NCBI GenBank assembly: GCA_000165425.1
Contig: CT868039.1
Location: 124,001-188,000 of the forward strand
DNA length: 64,000 nucleotides
Reading direction: 5' to 3'
Source of the DNA: Paramecium tetraurelia
Taxonomy: Eukaryota
The translations under genes and the position numbers were made by a program. Below, piece after piece: positions 1,788-58,790 of the stretch; the stretch's first letter is position 1, and every line of letters begins with the position of its first letter. The notes beneath the pieces are model-generated. The model was not told where the DNA came from. It searched no databases and was given only the letters and a program-made list of their open reading frames with translations.

Positions 1788-4700
1788 ATGAAAACTAAGG
1801 AACTTTGGACTTACACAATTGATAAGCCAAACGAGCCAAATTCAAATCTCACAAATCAAGTATTTGCTTGTGCATTTTTAAAAGGTAAAAGTGATTTAAT
1901 ATTATGAATAGACGGAGATGTTGTGGTTGCCGCTGTAGGGAATGCCCTCCTCTTATTTGATACTTAAAAATCTGAAATGCTAAGACCACCTCTAAGAGGA
2001 CAACATAAAGACACAATTACCTGTTTGGCTGCGTCTAAGGATGGAAATAAAATGGTTACAGGTAGTACAGATAAAACAGTTATCGTGTGGGGATTCAATA
2101 TCACTAGAGGTGAGAAGATGTTGGATGCCGAAAAATGGTTTTCACACAGCGAAGCCATACAGTGTGTTGCCATCAGTCCTTTGATGTATTAGATATTTAC
2201 AGGCTCAAATCAAGAGTACTCTTTATGGATTCCTGGAATGAGTAACATTGAAAGGTAGAAGTATAAGGAGAAAATAATATGTGCAGCTTGGAGTGCTGAT
2301 GGCCAGTATGTTTCATTTGGGACGTTGAGTGGTATATTTGAGTGCTTTTCATATTAGGAATGATTGTGATTACTGATAGACAAGCACATTAGTTGAAGGA
2401 GATTCAAACTCAGAAGGGGGGACCAGTCTGGTGTATGGAATGGACTCCAATAACTTCAGAATATCAGTAGTCGCAATTGACAGTCGGAGTGTGGATGAAT
2501 TCATTATATCAATTTGATTGCAATGGCTAATAAATTGGAGCTAGAACAGAATTACCATTCGATCCCTTGCATATCAATTATTAGTACAATGGTGAGTATA
2601 TGGCAATAGCTGGAAATAATAATAAGATTAACCTCTATACAAGAGAGGGTGGATTCTTAATGGAAGCCTGTTCTCTTAATGACTGGGTCTGGTGCAGTAA
2701 GATAAAACCAAAATCCACATTAATTGTATGTGGCACTAATGATGGTGACATCGTAGTGTAAGAATTACTATCAGAGAATGTTACTGCACTATATGATGAT
2801 AAGTTTGTTTAGAGAGAACAATTAACTGATGCTATCATATTGTCGATGATTTCTAATTAGAAGGCGAGAATCAAATGTAAGGAATTAGTCAAAAGAGTGG
2901 CCATATTCAAGGAGAAAGTGGCCATCTTGTGTGGCATCAAGGTTTTGATTTACACTTGTGTTATTAAAGGAGAGGATTTCATGAAATACAAGCAATTCAA
3001 GAAATTTTAGAAGAGAGTGGATTGTGAGCACTTCTAATTGGCATCATCAAATGTTTTGATTGGAGCAGGCTAGAAATTAATTGCATTCAATTTTAATGGA
3101 GATATGGACAAGACTTGGAGTTTCGAATCTCCTATTACTGTAGTTACTTGTCAAGGTGGTGCTCCAAAGCGAGAACTAGTTTTAGTTGGGTTGGAGAATG
3201 GAGGTGTCTACAAAATCTTTTTGGATAATTCATTCCCTATATAAATTCATAAAGTTAATACTCCTATTAAATATTTGACTATGTCTTAAACTAAGAGAAA
3301 ATTGGCATTGATAGATGGCAATTAGAATTTATAAGTACTAGATACTATAAGTAAAGAAATTTTGTTTGGGGAAATGAGTGTCGAAGGTGTTGCTTTTAAT
3401 CAAGAATTTGAGGATTTGATTGCTTATTCAGGTAAGGGATTGTTGTTTTTCAAATGCATTACATTCCCAGCTCTAAATTAAAAGATAACTGGTAATGTTA
3501 TAGGGTTCAAGGGATGCAAGTTATTTCTCCAAAATAATAACTAAGTCTAGACCATTGATATCCAATAAACAGCCAATATGCAAAGATATCTGGAGAAGAA
3601 GGATTTCTAGAATGCCTTGAAGATAGCTTGTCTTGGTGTGACAGAGTAGGATATTAGGGCTTTGGGAATAGAGGCTTTGATAGCAGGGGAGTTTGAAATT
3701 GCAAGAAGAGTATAAGAGAATTTAATTATTTTAGTGTTTTTTGAGAAATAAGGATTACTAATTCATCGATTTGCTATTGAAATATGAGAAGAAAAATATG
3801 GATGCTCAGGCACTGAACGAATTAAACGCAGAGGCTTTGGCATATCAAGGGAGATTCATGGATGCTGGTAATCTCTTAATAAAGGTTGGGTAGGCTGATA
3901 GAGCAGTGTAGTTATTTAAAGAATTAAGGAGATGGGATGATGCCATAAGTAAGTAATTATAGTATTGTAGACTTCGCAAAAAAGGGAGATGTTGCTTATA
4001 GAGCAGTGACATCTGGAGGAAGAACTGGCACTGGAGTTAGAGCACCAACTTCATAAGGAAGAACAGGGACAGGCAGGGGGTAGGCTGTCATGCCATAACC
4101 CTAAGATATAGCACCTCCGAAGATAGAGATGAATATGTTGTTGAGAGAACAAGCTGAATGGACCAAAGAATCGGGAGATTGGAAGGCTGCAGCTGATTTG
4201 TTTGTCACTTGTGGAGAATTTAAGAAGGCTATTGAGTTGTACGGATAGAATAAATATTTGGAAGGGTTGATCAATGTTTGCAGAATGTTGGACAGATAAG
4301 AGAATTCAGATAATATAGTTTTGTGTGCTAATTATTTCAAGAAACTCAAACATCATGGAGGTGCGAAGGAAGCTTATCTTAAATTAAATGATTTGAAGAA
4401 CCTTATGACTTTACATGTCGAATTCCAAAAATGGCAAGAAGCCTTTTAGATTGGGAGATCCAATAAGGAACTACTGGAAATTGCCAAAGTACCCTATGCT
4501 GACTACTTATTGCTAAATGATCGCTATGAGGATGCTCTCAAGGCTTATAAGAGTGCAGGCAGATTCGATATTACAATGAAGATGACCAAAGATATGGCCA
4601 AAAATTGTATAGAAGAACAAAGATATCATGATGCTAGTCAATACTTATGGAATCTAGCCATTGATTGTTTGTCTTAAATTCAAGATTATTAAAATCCATC

Positions 4701-5642
4701 AGGGGATGATGTGAAAGCCATCACCTAATACAAGGACTACAGCGATTTAGCAGATGTCTATTATGCATATCAAAAGATACACAGCTTCATTTGCGAACCA
4801 TTTCAACCGTTATCAGGAGAATCTTATTTCTTGTAAATTATGAATTCTGCCAGATTTATCATCTCCAAATGGAAGAGTGTCTATCAGGGTATAAAAATGA
4901 GTTATGTCTATTATGCCTTAGCTAAGTGTGCAGTTCAACTTGCATGTTTCAAGACTGCTCGTATATGTTATGAAAAATTGAATGTAATTCATTTACAGTA
5001 TTCTATTAGCAATTCAAAATACCTGCTGAATGGAGTGAAGAAATAGATCTTCAATCCCTATTAGTTAGATCAAAACCATATACAGACGATGAATCCAAAT
5101 TGCCACTCTGTATGAGATGCTAAACTTACAATGCCATCATTAATGTTAATGAAAAATTGTAGTTTTGCAATGCTTGTTTACATCCTCTCTTTTGCTCCTT
5201 CATCAGCTTCTAGACTCTCCCACTTGTTGAGTTCAAAGTTGATAATACCTTATAGAGAGATGATGTGCAAAGATTGCTTAACAGTGAGAAGGTATTCGTC
5301 AATAAGAGACCAGGATAATTATTCTAAGATAAAGTCAATGAAATTATTCAATAATAACAAACATCCCAAGACCAATACTTGGTGGTGGAATTGGATGAGG
5401 CTGCAGTTCAATCACTTTCACCAGAAGAAGTTTTGATTGTAGATTATAGACAATATTGCAGTACTATTGATGTCAAATACTATAAAAACATGGTTGGAGA
5501 ATAACCTATTCATGTTTGTCCTGATTGTGGAAGATTCTTCTATGTTGATGAACATGAATTCGAATATGTCCAAAAACGGTGCTGTCCATTTTGTAGAATT
5601 TCAGATAAAAAAATACCACAGAAGGATGTTTTTGATATTTGA
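1788..5642 (+). CDS. IFT122: Intraflagellar transport protein 122 (IFT-A; WD40, TPR and C-terminal Zn fingers)
   Basis: LRGQHKDTITCLAASKDGNKMVTGSTDKTVIVW, HSEAIQCVAISP, CAAWSADGQY, IACLGVTEQD, and C-terminal CPDCGRFF..CCPFCR. Several tiny introns; TGA at 5640-5642. Confidence 0.95.
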
Positions 5643-52895: not shown

Positions 52896-54334
52896 TCATA
52901 TATCAAATTCCTATTTAAATAGTAAAGCATATTTAGCAACATCATCCTATTTGTAGGATAGTAGTTTCTGAATTACACTAACTCCATCCAGTTTCACAAA
53001 AATAATGAAGAATTGGTTAGACTTGTTATCTTTAGCCTTGATTTCTCCTTTTCTAATGATTTTAATGAGAATTTCTAGTCCCTTCTTAAGATGAATGGAA
53101 GCGATTTCTTTTTCATTTGCTATTTCCAACATGCTAAGAAGATATTAAATAAGTCCATTTCCAACTAGCCTGCCGACATCCTCATTAGTCCCTTATTGAA
53201 TCGCATTTCCAATCACTTCTAGGGCATCCCCTCTTAGATTTTAATTATCATCACTTAATGATCGAAAAAGAGAGACCAAAAAGTTTTAATTCGACAAAAC
53301 CTTAAACAACGTTTCCGTTGCTGCAAATGTTTAAATCATATCTCCACTTTTATCTCTGCTTTTAGGATCAACAATCATTCTGATATGAGCAATAAATCCA
53401 CATTCTAATAAGTATTTAATTTAGTCTTCAGTTCCATAAAATATGCATTCAAAAATTCGTAGGATCGATACGAAATTGCCCATGGGTAATAGATTAATCA
53501 ATTAAGGCACTACTCCACTATTAATTAAGGCAGCAATTCTATTGGGTTCACCATCGATCATATATCCTAACGCCCAAATGGCATCGTTAATCATTTTTAA
53601 ATTTTGTTGATTGAACTCTTCCATAATTACTTAGGCAAAAATCTCAAATGCTGATTGTATCTTATCAAACTTAGGACTTGGACGGCCTATACACAAATTA
53701 GCCAAACACCATATGTAGATCGATTTGTATTTGGATTCAATTTTGCTTATTATTTTATCCATACTGCAGGCTTACAGTATAGAATCTCGATATTTCACAG
53801 ATTCACCAGCCAATTTTCCTAATATAGTTATGATTAACATAATCAACTCACTTTAATTACCATCTAGTACACTCATAGACAATTAAAGAATTCCATTTTC
53901 CATAATAATTCTTGTTATTTCACTTCTCCCTCCTGCTAGAATTGAAATGATTTCTAAATAATATTAAAAATATAAACAACATGCAGCTTCTAATTTTAAT
54001 AAATATGTGCTTCCATATTAGATGATGTGAAATAAAATAGGTATGAGCTCATTTTCTTTGGCAATCTCTTACTCAAAATTCTTATGTAATATTGAAAATT
54101 TTATACAGCCAACGTTCTCCTTAATTTAATTATTGCTTTGTGGCTTTCAATAAAATCCTCTGACCTCAGTGCATTTATGGAGTCCATGACAGTAATATGA
54201 TCTGCATCCATTCTTAAGATTTAAATTATTTCATCCTTCAGCTCTTGACATAGTTACTCCTATTGGACTAAGTCTTCATGGTTAGAATTTTGTTACAATT
54301 TTTTAATGCCTCCTAGTTTCTGACTATTTTTCAT
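52896..54334 (-). CDS. Divergent importin-alpha-like armadillo-repeat protein
   Basis: IKLRRTLA, KLEAA, LAGESVKYRDSIL, WCLANLCIGRPSP, DAIWALGYMIDG, SGVVPQLINLL, GTEDQ. Confidence 0.8.
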
Positions 54335-54916
54335 GGTTTTCTTTGTTTAATGTAGGAATAATAGAAGAATTTAATTATTTATCTCCACAGAATAGTTTAT
54401 TCATAATGAAATATAAATCATATATAATCTTTTAGTTCTTTCATTACGATGCACATATCAAATAATATATAATTTCAATTCAATCCAATTGAATAATTGT
54501 ATCATTCTTACTGACTACAAAATCGTTTGTTTCTCCCAGATTAAAAAGCATTTTGATTGGCATTTCTGTATTTTATACTACTAGATTCTCAGTAAATGTT
54601 ATGTTTTCAAAGATGCAACATTTTTTGTTATCATATACATGGAATGATAAAAATAACAATAATATGATATATTATCATTTCAAATCAGGTTCAAGAAAGA
54701 CTTTCATTAGGACTAATATATTTTTTGCTTTGATTGATATTTTAGGATTGCTTTTCAGGCTATTCAGATTATTCAATTAGAGATTATATTACATTACTCA
54801 CCCTATATACCTTATCTGTAATCATTGTAGTTCTTTGAATTAAATTTTGAGTTCATCACTTCCAAATTATGATTACTTATTTAATCAATATAATAAAAAC
54901 TGAAATAATATAATTA

Positions 54917-57695
54917 TCATGGCAATAATAATTTTTTGATTGCAACAGATAATCTCTGGGTATTCTATCTACATTCTTCCTGCAAATTGCATTCTGAGAT
55001 TTTATATTTCTACTTTATGGAATACATAAACTCAATTAGTTTTGTGAACTCTTCCCCTTGACCCAAGTCTCTTGTTTATTGGGAATTCAATACGCACTAA
55101 GATTAAACTTTGTAAATATACTTTAGCAATAAGATCTTAAACGACCTGTAAATCATTCTTTTCAAGGTTGAATCTATCTTGTGGATAACTCATTGGTATA
55201 ATCTTTTGTAAATGGAACTTTTGAAAGTATGAATCTTTCGCTTTGAATCCTGTGTACAGTGCGAGGTTTTTCATGCAAACTTAAGTTTTATAAAGAACAT
55301 CATTCCCCAATAGAATATGATCGTCTCTAACCAATAAACGATTTAGGATAGTGATTGCATAATCATAACAAAAGGGTGTGTTTTAAATATTGCTCTCCTA
55401 CACAGGAAAAGTGAATCCCACGTTGTAGATTTTGATAGAAACTCCTTTCTTGAGAGCAATGTCAGTCTAAATAGCTTTCACATGATCGATCATATATAAT
55501 AGAGTGTGAGGAACACAATTTCGATCGACGAACAACACAGCCTTTTCATTATTGGAATTGATAATTTCATTAATCTTTTTATGGAATTCTTGCAAAAAAG
55601 CATCTTTGATATACATAAACACCTTTTGGAATTAGATTGCCAATGAATCTGTGTTGTCTCCCAACTTATCTTTTATTAATTGAAGTGTGACTTCATCAGC
55701 ACAAATGTCATAAAAAGGATAATCCTTATAATTCTATTTTAAATAGTCAACCAAGGTAGATTTGCCAGAACCAGGTATCATTAATGGATAGATGATTACT
55801 ATTTTTTTTTAAGGCTTAACATCCTCATCAGATTCTTCTAAGTCTAGATCGTCTTAATCTTCTATTTATGGCTATTCTGCACATTCAAATTATTTGATTA
55901 TAGCCTCCAACTTTTGTAAGTCAAATTCTTCCAAAACAAAGGTTCTATTTGGAAAATTCTTCTAGCACTCTTTCAAATATACTTAGCCTTTTTCTAGCCA
56001 TCTCTCCAAACTCAACTATTATACTTTTGGTTTTGCAGTTGTAAATTGAACACCAAAGGAACTTATAATTGGATTGGAGTCTTAAAATATTTTAGATTAT
56101 AAATTCTGTAATGATATCTTGAATGCTTCTTAATTCATACCCAAGAAAACAAAGATGATGTTAGAGGGTTCTTAATTTTATAATGTTGAATTAACTAAGT
56201 AATCATTTAGTTGTTATTCATTATTAATATTGTATGGTAATTTAGGTATCATATGTAAAATTGAGATCGCTCTTTATGCGAATACCTTTTGATTTCTACA
56301 CATATATTAGCATTCAACACATTGTATATTAAGATTATCTTTTAAACTTTGCAACACTTTGTCTTCAAACAGCATTGGCAATGTTAATAGAATCACTCTT
56401 ACATGACGTTAAAAGTTCTTCTATTTGACCTCACCTAACTCATCTATTTCACTCATTTTGTCCTCTTGCATATTTTGAATTTACTCTAGAAAATCTACAA
56501 ATTTATATCTTATCTTTTCAAAGGGAATTTTATTGTTATAAACTTCTTCAAAAGCCAATTTTGAAATATGAAGATAGTACCTTATAGGTTATGGTGGTGC
56601 ATATTGTTTGATGATGATTTGCAATTCATTCAGGAATTTCCCTAATTAGACTGATAATTGATAATGCTCATTCAATGTTATCTTTTAGATCAATACTTTC
56701 AACATTTCTCTTAATTTTCTATATATTAAATATTCCATTGACTTTAATTTACAAAGACTTATAGTTTAGTGATTTCCGATTTAATCCTCAGCCACAATAT
56801 AAGTAACTGATCCTTCTCCTTCTAATTCCATAGGCCCTTCTCCTATGAGTTTCGACCATATTGCTAATTGTTTAAGGACAGCTTCATAATTATCAAAGTT
56901 TTTGATTGATGAATTTTTTACGAATTGCAAATGAAATTATTCACAAATTTACTTAGTTTGCTCGACTGGTAAACAAATATCTGGGGAATTGTTATTAACA
57001 ATGGCATAAAAGATGAGTTGAAGGTGTGAGTACTTTGTTATGTGCTGATAATCAGGATTACCACAATACTCTCCTATCAGAGTATTTTCAGTAAGAAAGG
57101 ATTTTAAATCATCAAAATTTTATTCTTTAATAATTTCCAACCACTATTTTGCAATCAATTTAGCCCACGTATGTCTTAAATCATTATATAAATTTAGATC
57201 ATCCATTGTTTGAAAGAGAATTGTGCAGTTTTTACTAGCCACCAACCAATATCCATTTGTAAAACTAATTTGACAGTGTTCACCATTTTCTTTGAATAAT
57301 TTGTACAAATGAATCTTTTTCCCTTCTTGAATGGCTTGTTTGATGGGATGCAAAATATTAAAACATGCTTTCTCATGATACCTCGACAATTTAACATTTT
57401 ATTATTCCAATTCATAATCAATGTACTTCCTTTCAAGATCGTAGAACTTTCGCATTCCTCTTCTGCAGATGCGGATAGAATCTTCATGTACTAAAATTGA
57501 ATTGCCTCTTCTAACATTCGCTAGGAAGAAAGGATTTTTGAGGTATAGCTTGTCCTCCATTGGACCTTTCTTATGTAATGAAATATCATAAAGTTGGAAG
57601 CCAAAAATATCCTATTTTACTAGTAAAATCTTTTTGTGCTCTTTCATTTTCTATAAGTATTCGGCAGGATCAGAAATGTAAATACCTTGTTACAT
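54917..57695 (-). CDS. Trl1/Rnl1-type RNA ligase fused to a polynucleotide-kinase-like P-loop domain (917 aa)
   Basis: RRGMRKFYD, motif I KENG, ASKN, TLIGEYCG, IFYAIV, EGEGSV, KLKSMEY; kinase IPGSGKST, FVDRN, RLLVRDDH. One 25-nt intron gives 2754 coding nt. Confidence 0.85.
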
Positions 57696-57712
57696 AATTA
57701 AATTAATAATTT

Positions 57713-57979
57713 ATGGAGTAATTTTAAAATGCATATAAAGAGTTGGGAAAGATGGTCAAAATGAGTACCTTTTACCAGGCATAGAAGAAAGAATAAAAAA
57801 ACAATGGAAAGCAATAAAAGATAAGTCAAAAATCAAAGAAAATTAAAGAAGCTCCATTAGCATCCAGAGAAGAGTTGATGCAAAAACTGAAAAACAAAAT
57901 AGATTCATTGAAAGCTGACAGAACTACAAAGAAAGATTATGTACCCCTTAGAAAACAAAGATAATAATAAAAAAAATGA
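57713..57979 (+). CDS. Small basic protein (88 aa) with a SURF6/Rrp14-like helix
   Basis: MEQFQNAYKELG..SREELMQKLKNKIDSLKADR..QQQKK*. 267 nt. Confidence 0.6.
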
Positions 57980-58790
57980 ATATATATAATTATCTCTAAA
58001 GGAAATTATATATTTATTAAATAATATAGTCCTAAGAAGTATGTCGTGAATGTGATCCTCATTTCTTATATCTGATGAACTAAACCACTTCTAGAGTGTG
58101 AGAGATTCGATTTTTGGAGAGAGTTCAAAAAAGGGGAAAAATCAATTCTTGAGTGACTCTAGAAATCTGTCCTTCTTAAAGAATTTAGTGACAATAGTGC
58201 CTCGAATTGATGTCATCATTCCACATATTATTCTTCAAATCATTCAAAATAATGTGAAAATTATACATTTTTTACATCATATAAAATAGTATATTTCTAA
58301 AGTGGCATTTTAAAATAGGAATATTTTTAGTTCTATTAGATTTTTTACAAACTCCCTTAAATGATGCATCAATTGAATTGCTGCGTTAACTCAAACAAGA
58401 TATATTCTAAAAACACCTTTTCCTCCAAGTTGAAAACTCTAATTGATAAGAAAAAATGAAAACTTTTTTCTGGGCTAGATATTTTTATTTTACTGTTAAA
58501 ATAATTATTATAAAAATATATTTATAATAATTTATTTAATTGTGATTTTCAGCGTTATTCTTGTATTCAAATTTCAAAAAATTGCTCCATTTGATTCAGA
58601 TTAATGAGTTTCTAAACCCTCATTTATTAATTTACAATATACACAATAAATAAAATTAATAAATGACGCTATAAGTTATTGCATATTGAATCACTAGATT
58701 TTGAAAATAATATATATTAATGATGAATTATCGTAATTCAAATCCGACAATATCTTTATTACTCAAATCAATATTAAATACACAAAAAAA

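Follow-up and report, generated by a model that had tools for sequence, protein, structure and literature searches.

The 64,000-nucleotide stretch of Paramecium tetraurelia DNA analyzed here (GenBank assembly GCA_000165425.1, contig CT868039.1, positions 124,001 to 188,000; the window) carries on its minus strand, at window positions 54917 to 57695, an expressed gene for an RNA ligase fused to a polynucleotide kinase. Fungal and plant Trl1 proteins are enzymes made up of a ligase, a kinase, and a 2H-type cyclic phosphodiesterase (CPD); animals seal tRNA halves with RtcB, and for that reason Trl1-type ligases are pursued as antifungal targets. The Paramecium protein resembles the first two of these domains and has no CPD. 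The gene model, its expression, the identities of the domains, the conservation of their catalytic residues, and the absence of the CPD were established directly. Judged from its sequence, the Paramecium ligase-kinase is a real and probably functional variant of the Trl1 enzyme. We consider it likely to be bifunctional, healing and sealing RNA ends in the manner of Trl1, with the CPD supplied by a separate protein.

Gene model and expression

The minus strand holds an open reading frame from 55032 to 57734 under NCBI translation table 6, with 42 TAA or TAG codons read as glutamine. A scan of positions 54800 to 58200 yielded seven GTA...TAG intron candidates of 18 to 40 nucleotides, of which the one at 55097 to 55121 alone was backed by both orthologs and reads. 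Removal of its 25 nucleotides takes the frame into a second exon of 59 codons that closes with TGA at 54917 to 54919, and the protein starting from the ATG at 57695 is 917 amino acids long. The extent of the gene as first proposed in the initial annotation, 54917 to 57695, proved exact at both the start and the stop codon, and the ortholog models agree with it. The parts of the gene are as follows.

54917 to 57695, minus strand: whole gene from ATG through TGA, two exons with 917 codons, ciliate code with TAA and TAG as Gln.
55122 to 57695, minus strand: exon 1, residues 1 to 858.
55097 to 55121, minus strand: intron of 25 nucleotides, GTA...TAG, phase 0, from the sequence and reads.
54917 to 55096, minus strand: exon 2, the 59-residue C-terminal tail and the stop codon at 54917 to 54919, with no H-x-T/S and no family match.

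Proteins from two other species, P. octaurelia (P0003, 917 amino acids, 97% identical to the Paramecium ligase-kinase) and P. primaurelia (P0004, 918 amino acids, 85% identical), have annotated models with the same start, the same junction (...LIAK ending exon 1 and CVL... opening exon 2), and the same end (...KKLLLP) as the gene in the window. Expression was examined over positions 54300 to 58100 in three oligo-dT RNA sequencing (RNA-seq) runs carrying the same species label, with 200, 555, and 537 reads mapped per run. All reads over the gene had their first mate on the plus strand, the usual sign of a minus-strand RNA, and the stranded coverage extended in the minus-strand sense over 54935 to 57728. 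Read depth was about 2 to 23 over 54935 to 57601 and about 0 over 54427 to 54680. A transcript-like contig from a fourth run (X3) spans 54659 to 57675 with exactly the 25 nucleotides at 55097 missing, and at 55096 three reads from RNA run X22 have an overhang whose sequence is that of the exon 1 end. The next gene is a separate, unrelated open frame that starts near 54334. The X3 contig, the X22 overhang reads, and the near-zero depth together indicate that the intron is spliced and that no further coding exon lies downstream before the next gene. The gene is confirmed as real and expressed, and its model is agreed upon by orthologs and RNA-seq.

Read starts were stacked at 54958 in two RNA runs (8 and 9 reads), and depth falls about 40 nucleotides before the annotated stop. 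This stack could reflect internal oligo-dT priming at a nearby run of A residues or an alternative 3' end.

The ligase domain

An exhaustive HMMER search of 1.84 billion representative sequences returned 554 relatives at an E value of ≤1e-3 and 102 at ≤1e-30. The domain map was made with jackhmmer on the 150 best relatives, using seeds from P0003 and two three-domain relatives. In P0003, it placed the ligase at residues 21 to 420, a middle region at 421 to 625, the kinase at 627 to 860, and the tail from about residue 856, overlapping the end of the kinase (exon 2 encodes residues 859 to 917). The ligase domain and its motifs lie at the following positions.

56436 to 57635, minus strand: ligase domain, residues 21 to 420, supported by Pfam PF09511, PHROG 968, the family domain map, the profile match to PDB entry 9qw7, and conserved columns.
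57444 to 57464, minus strand: RRGMRKF, residues 78 to 84.
57282 to 57293, minus strand: KENG, residues 135 to 138.
57228 to 57239, minus strand: ASKN, residues 153 to 156.
57060 to 57074, minus strand: GEYCG, residues 208 to 212.
57000 to 57011, minus strand: FYAI, residues 229 to 232.
56805 to 56816, minus strand: EGSV, residues 294 to 297.
56742 to 56750, minus strand: KLK, residues 316 to 318.
56709 to 56723, minus strand: YRKLR, residues 325 to 329, a candidate 2'-phosphate-binding RxxR, aligned to YRQWR of the ligase domain of Candida glabrata Trl1 (Trl1-LIG).

The domain consists of an Rnl1-like N-terminal subdomain (R63, G64, K83, F84), nucleotidyltransferase motifs I to V, and a C-terminal segment that begins with R326-x-x-R329. 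Motifs I (KxNG), Ia, III, IIIa, IV, and V all occur, as K135-E-N-G, S154-K-N, G208-E-Y-C-G, F229, E294-G-S-V, and K316-L-K318, and Lys135 is the predicted acceptor of AMP. The initial annotation had named KENG, ASKN, GEYCG, FYAI, EGSV, KLK, and RG.RKF from the letters alone. Every one of these motifs was found and could be given coordinates, and none is a chance match, since across alignments of 31, 104, and 28 relatives each of their columns is either invariant or conserved to at least 90%.

Profile searches point to the same identity. Pfam PF09511 (RNA_lig_T4_1) matched with 30.8 bits against a cutoff of 28.3, covering 202 of 227 model positions, and PHROG 968, "RNA ligase," matched at 1.1e-6. 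PF09511 is also present on 24 of the 30 nearest named ESM-Atlas clusters, which we treat as a lead only. A search of the Paramecium ligase-kinase against NCBIfam returned no family. When a profile of 28 ligase-only relatives plus the ligase domain from the window (profile A5) was searched against the PDB, it matched 9qw7 with an E value of 3e-7 and motifs III, IV, and V aligned. This entry is the ligase domain of C. glabrata Trl1 (PMC12645390). The family segment EYRxxRKLRE was aligned to the fungal PYLMYRQWRE, and a second short stretch upstream paired RRG...RKG.KKFFD with ARG...ARGYDKFFN. The next nucleotidyltransferases in the A5 search were a Pyrococcus RNA ligase (E value of 0.69) and a DNA ligase (E value of 1.6), and hhalign against T4 DNA ligase (gp30) gave nothing (probability of 0.1%). 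The initial annotation had named better matches to DNA ligases or capping enzymes as counting against its N-terminal RNA ligase; given the gap between Trl1-LIG and the DNA ligase in this search, that is not what was observed.

One paper describes a set of sequence features that marks the Trl1 ligase clade, Rnl6, and uses the same features to place a kinetoplastid enzyme (PMC6379707). These are the N-terminal subdomain, the nucleotidyltransferase motifs, and an RxxR flanking motif V, which in Chaetomium is R334/R337 of the 2'-phosphate pocket; formally, that source defines Rnl6 by an all-helical C-terminal domain of about 80 amino acids (PMC6379707). The fungal RxxR arginines are reported to bind the 2'-phosphate (PMC6379707, PMC12440814), and mutating them slows the ligation of 2'-phosphate substrates (PMC12440814). 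At the sequence level, the Paramecium protein carries the Rnl6 marks R63, K83, and F84; K135; and R326 and R329. The first three align to the matching motif of 9qw7 and of T4 RnlA. R326 and R329 sit 8 and 11 residues after motif V (K318) and are kept in 106 and 110, respectively, of 114 family ligase domains summed over classes; among relatives without a CPD, the two positions are Arg in 31 of 35 and 33 of 35. This evidence supports assignment of the N-terminal domain as an RNA ligase of the Rnl1/Trl1 kind.

The kinase domain

55122 to 55817 (exon 1 part), minus strand: polynucleotide kinase domain, residues 627 to 860, the last two in exon 2, from profile matches and conserved columns.
55755 to 55778, minus strand: IPGSGKST, residues 640 to 647.
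55518 to 55529, minus strand: VDRN, residues 723 to 726 (DRN, residues 724 to 726).
55326 to 55340, minus strand: RLLVR, residues 786 to 790.

The kinase signature comprises the P-loop G644-K645-S646, Asp667, Asp724, and the lid R786-x3-R790-x2-H793. The essential residues described for the Trl1 kinase are the P-loop Lys/Thr, an Asp 20 residues farther along that serves as general base, another Asp, and lid residues Arg528, Arg532, and His535, with Arg528 stacking on the base (PMC5728400). The spacing of the Paramecium lid is the same as that of R528/R532/H535 of Candida albicans. A profile of 104 sequences (A3) searched against the PDB matched the C. albicans Trl1 kinase, 5u32, at an E value of 1.4e-6 over chain residues 13 to 220 of 236 (208 residues), the only full-length match of the kinase domain to a solved structure. 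In that alignment, the family R-V-x-x-R-x-x-H was placed on the fungal NRVIQRGDNH, and the G-loop region, to which the fungal kinase owes its GTP specificity, was placed against the family "PFT.E" segment, where the fungal Ser-Ser pair was not evident. A3 also matched 6tzx ("tRNA ligase") at 1.7e-5 and T4 polynucleotide kinase at 1.4e-3. With hhalign, T4 PseT was matched at a probability of 76% and an E value of 2.3e-5, with the P-loop, an Asp-x-x-Arg segment, and the Walker-B-like D-x-N aligned; this alignment covers PseT residues 4 to 92 only, which is the kinase half. With regard to a HAD-type 3'-phosphatase, no HAD family was found in Pfam at an E value of ≤1. The C-terminal kinase that the initial annotation had recognized from IPGSGKST, DRN, and RxxxR is borne out by these motifs and by the fungal and T4 matches, which support its assignment as a Trl1-like polynucleotide kinase.

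The segment of P0003 that matches the SRP54/FtsY NG region lies at about residues 520 to 740. That match may represent P-loop likeness combined with charged helices, or more. One relative, P0034, is above the Pfam SRP54 cutoff (23.2 versus 22.7 bits).

Absence of a cyclic phosphodiesterase

A hidden Markov model (HMM) was built from 28 CPD domains of the family and run with filters off. It gave ≤1 bit at the best stretch in all eight members of the Paramecium/Tetrahymena clade, compared with 224, 208, and 120 bits in three controls, and jackhmmer found no CPD match in P0003. The only H-x-[TS] sites in the whole Paramecium protein are H218 and H376, both within the ligase domain, and there are none after residue 376. 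The absence of an HxT pair after the kinase, first noticed in the initial annotation, therefore holds for the complete protein. Its broader claim that the CPD is lacking, the tail included, is likewise upheld by the HMM scores and by the RNA-seq data, which show no extra coding exon. On this evidence, the Paramecium enzyme is one without a cyclic phosphodiesterase.

Two segments outside the ligase and kinase could be considered as places for a CPD: the tail and the middle region.

55821 to 56435, minus strand: middle region, residues 421 to 625 (205 amino acids), from the jackhmmer map.

The middle region has no invariant residue, and indeed no column between residues 374 and 644 is invariant. 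It is also found in some relatives with a CPD, and when compared by hhalign with the family kinase, CPD, and ligase profiles, it gave probabilities of ≤0.4% (0.3% for the CPD). Given the lack of invariant residues, the lack of profile similarity, and its presence in CPD-bearing relatives, the middle region would be neither a decayed CPD nor a CPD replacement. The 59-residue tail matched no family. Compared with the kinase-to-CPD linker of three-domain relatives, it gave no significant match for Paramecium (E value of 0.34); 29 of 37 CPD-less relatives match the linker segment at an E value of ≤0.002, and that segment includes the last 30 kinase residues. Of 57 tail residues, P0003 and P0004 share 50, and the ligase, middle region, kinase, and tail are each 82 to 88% identical between two Paramecium species. 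The eight proteins of the clade (three from the Paramecium complex, three from Tetrahymena species, and others) all end 23 to 66 residues after the kinase.

Architectures among relatives

Sixty-six relatives have a near-complete ligase domain together with a kinase or a CPD. Thirty-five of them are ligase-kinase proteins, 28 are ligase-kinase-CPD proteins, and three are ligase-CPD proteins. A quick IQ-TREE tree was made from the 66 ligase domains, with SH-aLRT support and a midpoint root for drawing only; 49 ligase-only rows were left out because many are fragments. The proteins of Paramecium and Tetrahymena form one ligase-kinase clade with three further proteins (SH-aLRT support of 99), and this clade falls among three-domain forms, that of Pseudocohnilembus included, in a part of the tree with poor resolution. 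The ligase-kinase label needs eight changes on the tree, of which at least three are forced by well-supported branches. Among the rows classed as ligase-kinase, at least P0014 seems to be a three-domain protein that has been truncated. The ends of most CPD-less proteins, by contrast, fall 53 to 66 residues beyond the kinase, in favor of real stops.

The catalytic columns are equally conserved in the two classes. In CPD-less and three-domain proteins, respectively, K135 is found in 33/35 and 28/28, R329 in 33/35 and 26/28, K645 in 35/36 and 29/31, and D667 in 36/36 and 30/31. The proteins of Tetrahymena utriculariae, T. thermophila, and T. malaccensis have 956 to 958 amino acids and are ligase-kinase only; the T. 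thermophila ortholog is automatically named "RNA ligase." That the CPD-less form is common to Tetrahymena and many other relatives marks it as a stable architecture and not a local defect. Other relatives, from assemblies and metagenomes, may belong to protists or giant viruses. Among 50,697 phage records, tblastn with the ligase domain matched none, and of the 34 pattern matches that the ligase profile picked out in viral contigs, none was confirmed.

Two word-indexed searches were also made. The 104-sequence profile returned 29 proteins, of which the named ones were only the Paramecium and Tetrahymena ligase-kinase forms, and it recovered 10 of its 104 query members. With a CPD profile, 18 proteins came back, of which none belongs to Paramecium or Tetrahymena, and three of the eight source proteins were recovered. 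In both searches, recall was too low to show absence.

Several relatives have unusual compositions. Blepharisma stoltei has two three-domain copies, P0019 and P0049. In P0019 (1,146 amino acids), the CPD scores 120 bits, yet both H-x-T motifs appear by eye to be missing, and its paralog P0049 keeps them. P0028 of Pseudocohnilembus persalinus (KRX03494.1, 2,692 amino acids) has an RNA-dependent RNA polymerase (RdRP; PF05183, E value of 3.4e-71) followed by a ligase at 1533 to 1957, a kinase at 2002 to 2227, and a CPD at 2289 to 2536; it may be a real fusion that ties RNA repair to an RdRP pathway, or it may be two merged genes. P0105 (1,197 amino acids) has dynein heavy chain N-terminal region 2 (PF08393, E value of 4.6e-33) between ligase and kinase, which may be a chimeric gene call or an insertion. 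P0041, P0061, and P0065 combine ligase and CPD but have no kinase, and so are the counterpart to the ligase-kinase form; the source label of P0041 is EukProt.

Proposed pathway and alternatives

The chemistry of each step, the requirement for a 2'-phosphate, the partner acting in trans, and the substrate are what we infer from these sequences. The substrates may be exons of tRNA or further RNAs cleaved by transesterifying nucleases. A separate enzyme would open the 2',3'-cyclic phosphate to a 3'-OH,2'-PO4 end, and the C-terminal kinase would phosphorylate the 5'-OH RNA end by means of Lys645 and Ser646, with Asp667 as the general base and Arg786, Arg790, and His793 in the lid. The ligase would then move AMP from ATP onto Lys135 and from there onto the new 5'-phosphate. 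The ends would be sealed, 5'-phosphate to 3'-OH, and the 2'-phosphate would be left for a Tpt1-type enzyme.

Two features of the protein bear on the first of these steps, for which the initial annotation had left two options, healing of the 3' end in trans or no need for it. The RxxR pair (Arg326 and Arg329) is kept, so the enzyme most likely still seals 3'-OH,2'-PO4 ends, with a separate protein opening the cyclic phosphate; retention of these two putative 2'-phosphate-binding arginines thus favors healing in trans. The kinase points the same way. Cleavage by a transesterifying RNase (the tRNA splicing endonuclease, Ire1, an RNase T2-type enzyme, or a ribotoxin, for example) always produces a 2',3'-cyclic phosphate. 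A kinase for 5'-OH ends implies breaks made by such RNases, hence partner ends with a 2',3'-cyclic phosphate, hence healing in trans. That the other product of these RNases is the 2',3'-cyclic phosphate is established enzymology (PMC11571804).

Some of our results weigh against a bifunctional Trl1-kind enzyme helped by a separate CPD. Such a trans-acting CPD was not found for Paramecium or Tetrahymena in the low-recall, word-limited searches. For the ligase, the Rnl2-type family PF09414 scored 24.7 bits, below its cutoff of 27 yet close to PF09511, and in several relatives it scored above PF09511. The broader profiles A2 and A3 did not bring up entry 9qw7 at an E value of ≤0.01, nor did the PDB yield anything useful to single-sequence searches. 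The A5 alignment stops at residue 307 of the 9qw7 chain and thus takes in only some 24 residues of its C-terminal domain (284 to 377), and hhalign against T4 Rnl1 (RnlA) was weak, aligning the upstream motif alone (R54/K75/F76) at a probability of 4%. For the kinase, PSTK (4e-7) and the SRP54/FtsY GTPases (8e-7 with A3; 4e-9 with A2) matched as well, although the PSTK and SRP-receptor GTPase matches span only the P-loop half and the preceding helices. Residue 670 of the Paramecium protein, which falls in the T4 Pnk Arg38 column, is Thr, whereas in most relatives it is Arg. In the transcript, depth was 0 to 0.35 in the bin that holds the stop codon (54808 to 54934), through which only the X3 contig runs, so the 3' end of the mRNA is not fixed by the short reads.

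Among the alternatives to healing by a separate CPD, one that we regard as possible, although we do not favor it, is that the ligase-kinase is a specialized paralog: RtcB or a three-domain ligase would splice tRNA, and the ligase-kinase would act on stress-cleaved RNAs or RNAs of small-RNA pathways. Three-domain relatives do occur in other ciliates (B. stoltei and Pseudocohnilembus), the gene model in Pseudocohnilembus has its three domains after a eukaryotic RdRP, and RtcB is described as widespread in eukaryotes outside fungi and plants (PMC4931112). However, that RdRP fusion is one unverified gene model, and for Paramecium and Tetrahymena the word-indexed search, whose recall is low, brought up no form but the ligase-kinase. 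Moreover, ciliates would need a tRNA ligase, since Mesodinium is reported to carry tRNA-Tyr introns and TSEN (preprint 10.64898/2026.07.09.736142). It is less probable, and in our view unlikely, that 3'-end healing is not needed at all, with the ligase having relaxed or lost its 2'-phosphate requirement so as to join ordinary 3'-OH ends and make the CPD dispensable. Such an enzyme would fit the recurrence of the CPD-less form on the tree, the lack of any separate CPD in our low-recall searches, and a report that fungal Trl1-LIG prefers the 2'-phosphate strongly but not absolutely (PMC12440814). It fits poorly with the conservation of R326 and R329 in CPD-less relatives and with a 5'-OH kinase, which implies partner ends bearing a cyclic phosphate. 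No ligase of this superfamily is known to join cyclic-phosphate ends directly, and the searches that failed to find a CPD missed most of their own query and source proteins. Quite unlikely, too, is the more general proposal that CPD-less ligase-kinases form a distinct, widespread class of eukaryotic (or giant-virus) RNA repair enzymes in which 3' ends are healed by something other than the Trl1 2H domain. In that case, healing may come from an unrelated phosphoesterase or from a nuclease that leaves the 2'-phosphate directly. The CPD-less class of ciliates may serve RNAs other than tRNA, a hint of which is the relative that follows an RdRP in one gene model.

The remaining two alternatives concern the identity of the protein itself. 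We hold it very improbable that the missing CPD is an artefact of a truncated model, a missed exon, or a CPD that has diverged beyond recognition in the middle region or tail. The middle region has no assigned fold, and the read depth over the stop codon is thin. Against this stand the common ends of the eight clade proteins, the near-zero depth that separates the next gene, and the CPD scores of both the HMM and hhalign. The middle region, moreover, lacks invariant residues and accompanies a CPD in some relatives, and a tail of 59 residues could not hold a 2H fold, which takes about 200. Even less credible is that the N-terminal domain belongs with DNA ligases or capping enzymes, seals nicks in the Rnl2 manner, or is an inactive relic. 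Apart from the closeness of PF09414 to PF09511, and its higher score in some relatives, the results go the other way: the DNA ligase values are far behind that of Trl1-LIG, the upstream Arg/Lys/Phe motif specific to Rnl1 and Trl1 is present together with RxxR, the domain shares its polypeptide with a Trl1-type kinase, joined in relatives by a 2H CPD, and its catalytic residues are all conserved.

Comparison with characterized enzymes

By sequence, the closest characterized enzymes are the fungal and kinetoplastid Trl1 proteins, of which the CPD is the third defining feature and the one that is missing here. Fungal Trl1 (Saccharomyces cerevisiae, Chaetomium thermophilum, C. albicans, and C. glabrata), whose ligase founds Rnl6, has the same order of ligase and then kinase. 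It shares motif I, which is KENG here and TLKENG in Chaetomium, the upstream Arg/Lys/Phe motif, the RxxR after motif V, and the kinase P-loop, Asp general base, and R-x3-R-x2-H lid. The Paramecium protein differs in having no C-terminal 2H CPD and in having the extra 205-residue middle region between ligase and kinase. Identity is too low for single-sequence searches, and the fungal G-loop Ser-Ser is not evident in the aligned region. The kinetoplastid enzyme, TbTrl1 of Trypanosoma brucei, is a protist Trl1 homolog (PMC4931112) placed in Rnl6 by the sequence features applied here (PMC6379707). Unlike the Paramecium protein, TbTrl1 is described as a three-domain enzyme with two HxT motifs that is needed for tRNA-Tyr maturation (PMC4931112).

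The nearest precedent for a Trl1-type ligase with no covalently linked CPD is found in the Mucorales, which are reported to have a stand-alone Trl1-type ligase and a stand-alone GTP-dependent kinase, their CPD being described as still unidentified (PMC10946435, PMC11571804). The two enzymes are fused in Paramecium, and the Mucorales enzymes have been tested biochemically and genetically, whereas the Paramecium enzyme is known from its sequence. Both raise the same question, namely, where the 3'-OH,2'-PO4 end comes from when there is no Trl1 CPD. In Branchiostoma floridae, healing and sealing are also split between polypeptides, with the ligase BfRNL separate from a kinase/CPDase (as described in PMC3400036). 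The split is a different one, as the amphioxus ligase stands alone from kinase and CPD, while in Paramecium ligase and kinase stand together with no known CPD.

The plant enzyme AtRNL is another long enzyme of the ligase-kinase-(CPD) type, its kinase P-loop preceded by about 650 residues. Plants were compared by description only: AtRNL has a CPD, unlike the Paramecium protein, its kinase is reported not to be GTP restricted (PMC6379707), and plant Trl1 is described as lacking both of the fungal C-terminal domain arginines (PMC12440814). A "plant-type" label for the Paramecium ligase-kinase, first suggested by its long prekinase part, was dropped because the two arginines reported to be missing from plant Trl1 are kept here. 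Phage T4 Rnl1 and Pnkp share PF09511, an upstream motif of the R54/K75/F76 type, and the kinase half with its P-loop, Asp, and Walker-B residues. The T4 enzymes, however, are separate proteins, and 3' healing in T4 is done by a HAD phosphatase that yields 2'-OH,3'-OH ends. T4 Rnl1 also has its own C-terminal domain and no RxxR, and overall likeness to it is weak.

In a 2016 paper, Trl1-type tRNA ligases are described as restricted to plants, yeast, and trypanosomatids (PMC4931112). In the literature that we searched, we found no paper on a Trl1-type enzyme of ciliates and no description of a fused ligase-kinase without a CPD, although surveys of RNA repair outside that search may list such architectures. 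Model ciliates thus carry an expressed, constrained, Trl1-like ligase-kinase without a CPD, and the two-domain form is common among its uncharacterized relatives. RNA interference or knockout tools exist for Paramecium and Tetrahymena, which makes them a place in which to answer the question of the 3' end.

Genomic surroundings

The neighboring genes are unrelated and include IFT122, protein kinases, an aspartyl protease, and Kelch and LysM proteins; the window contains no tRNA gene. A small expressed gene lies divergently on the plus strand at 57718 to 57963, and its transcript contig begins about 23 nucleotides from the ligase-kinase ATG at 57695. As both genes are expressed, their promoters must overlap or be very short. 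The IFT122 homolog, on the plus strand at 2360 to 5115, consists of two long open frames, one with beta-propellers (2360 to 3787) and one with TPR repeats (3862 to 5115), which are presumably joined by small introns.

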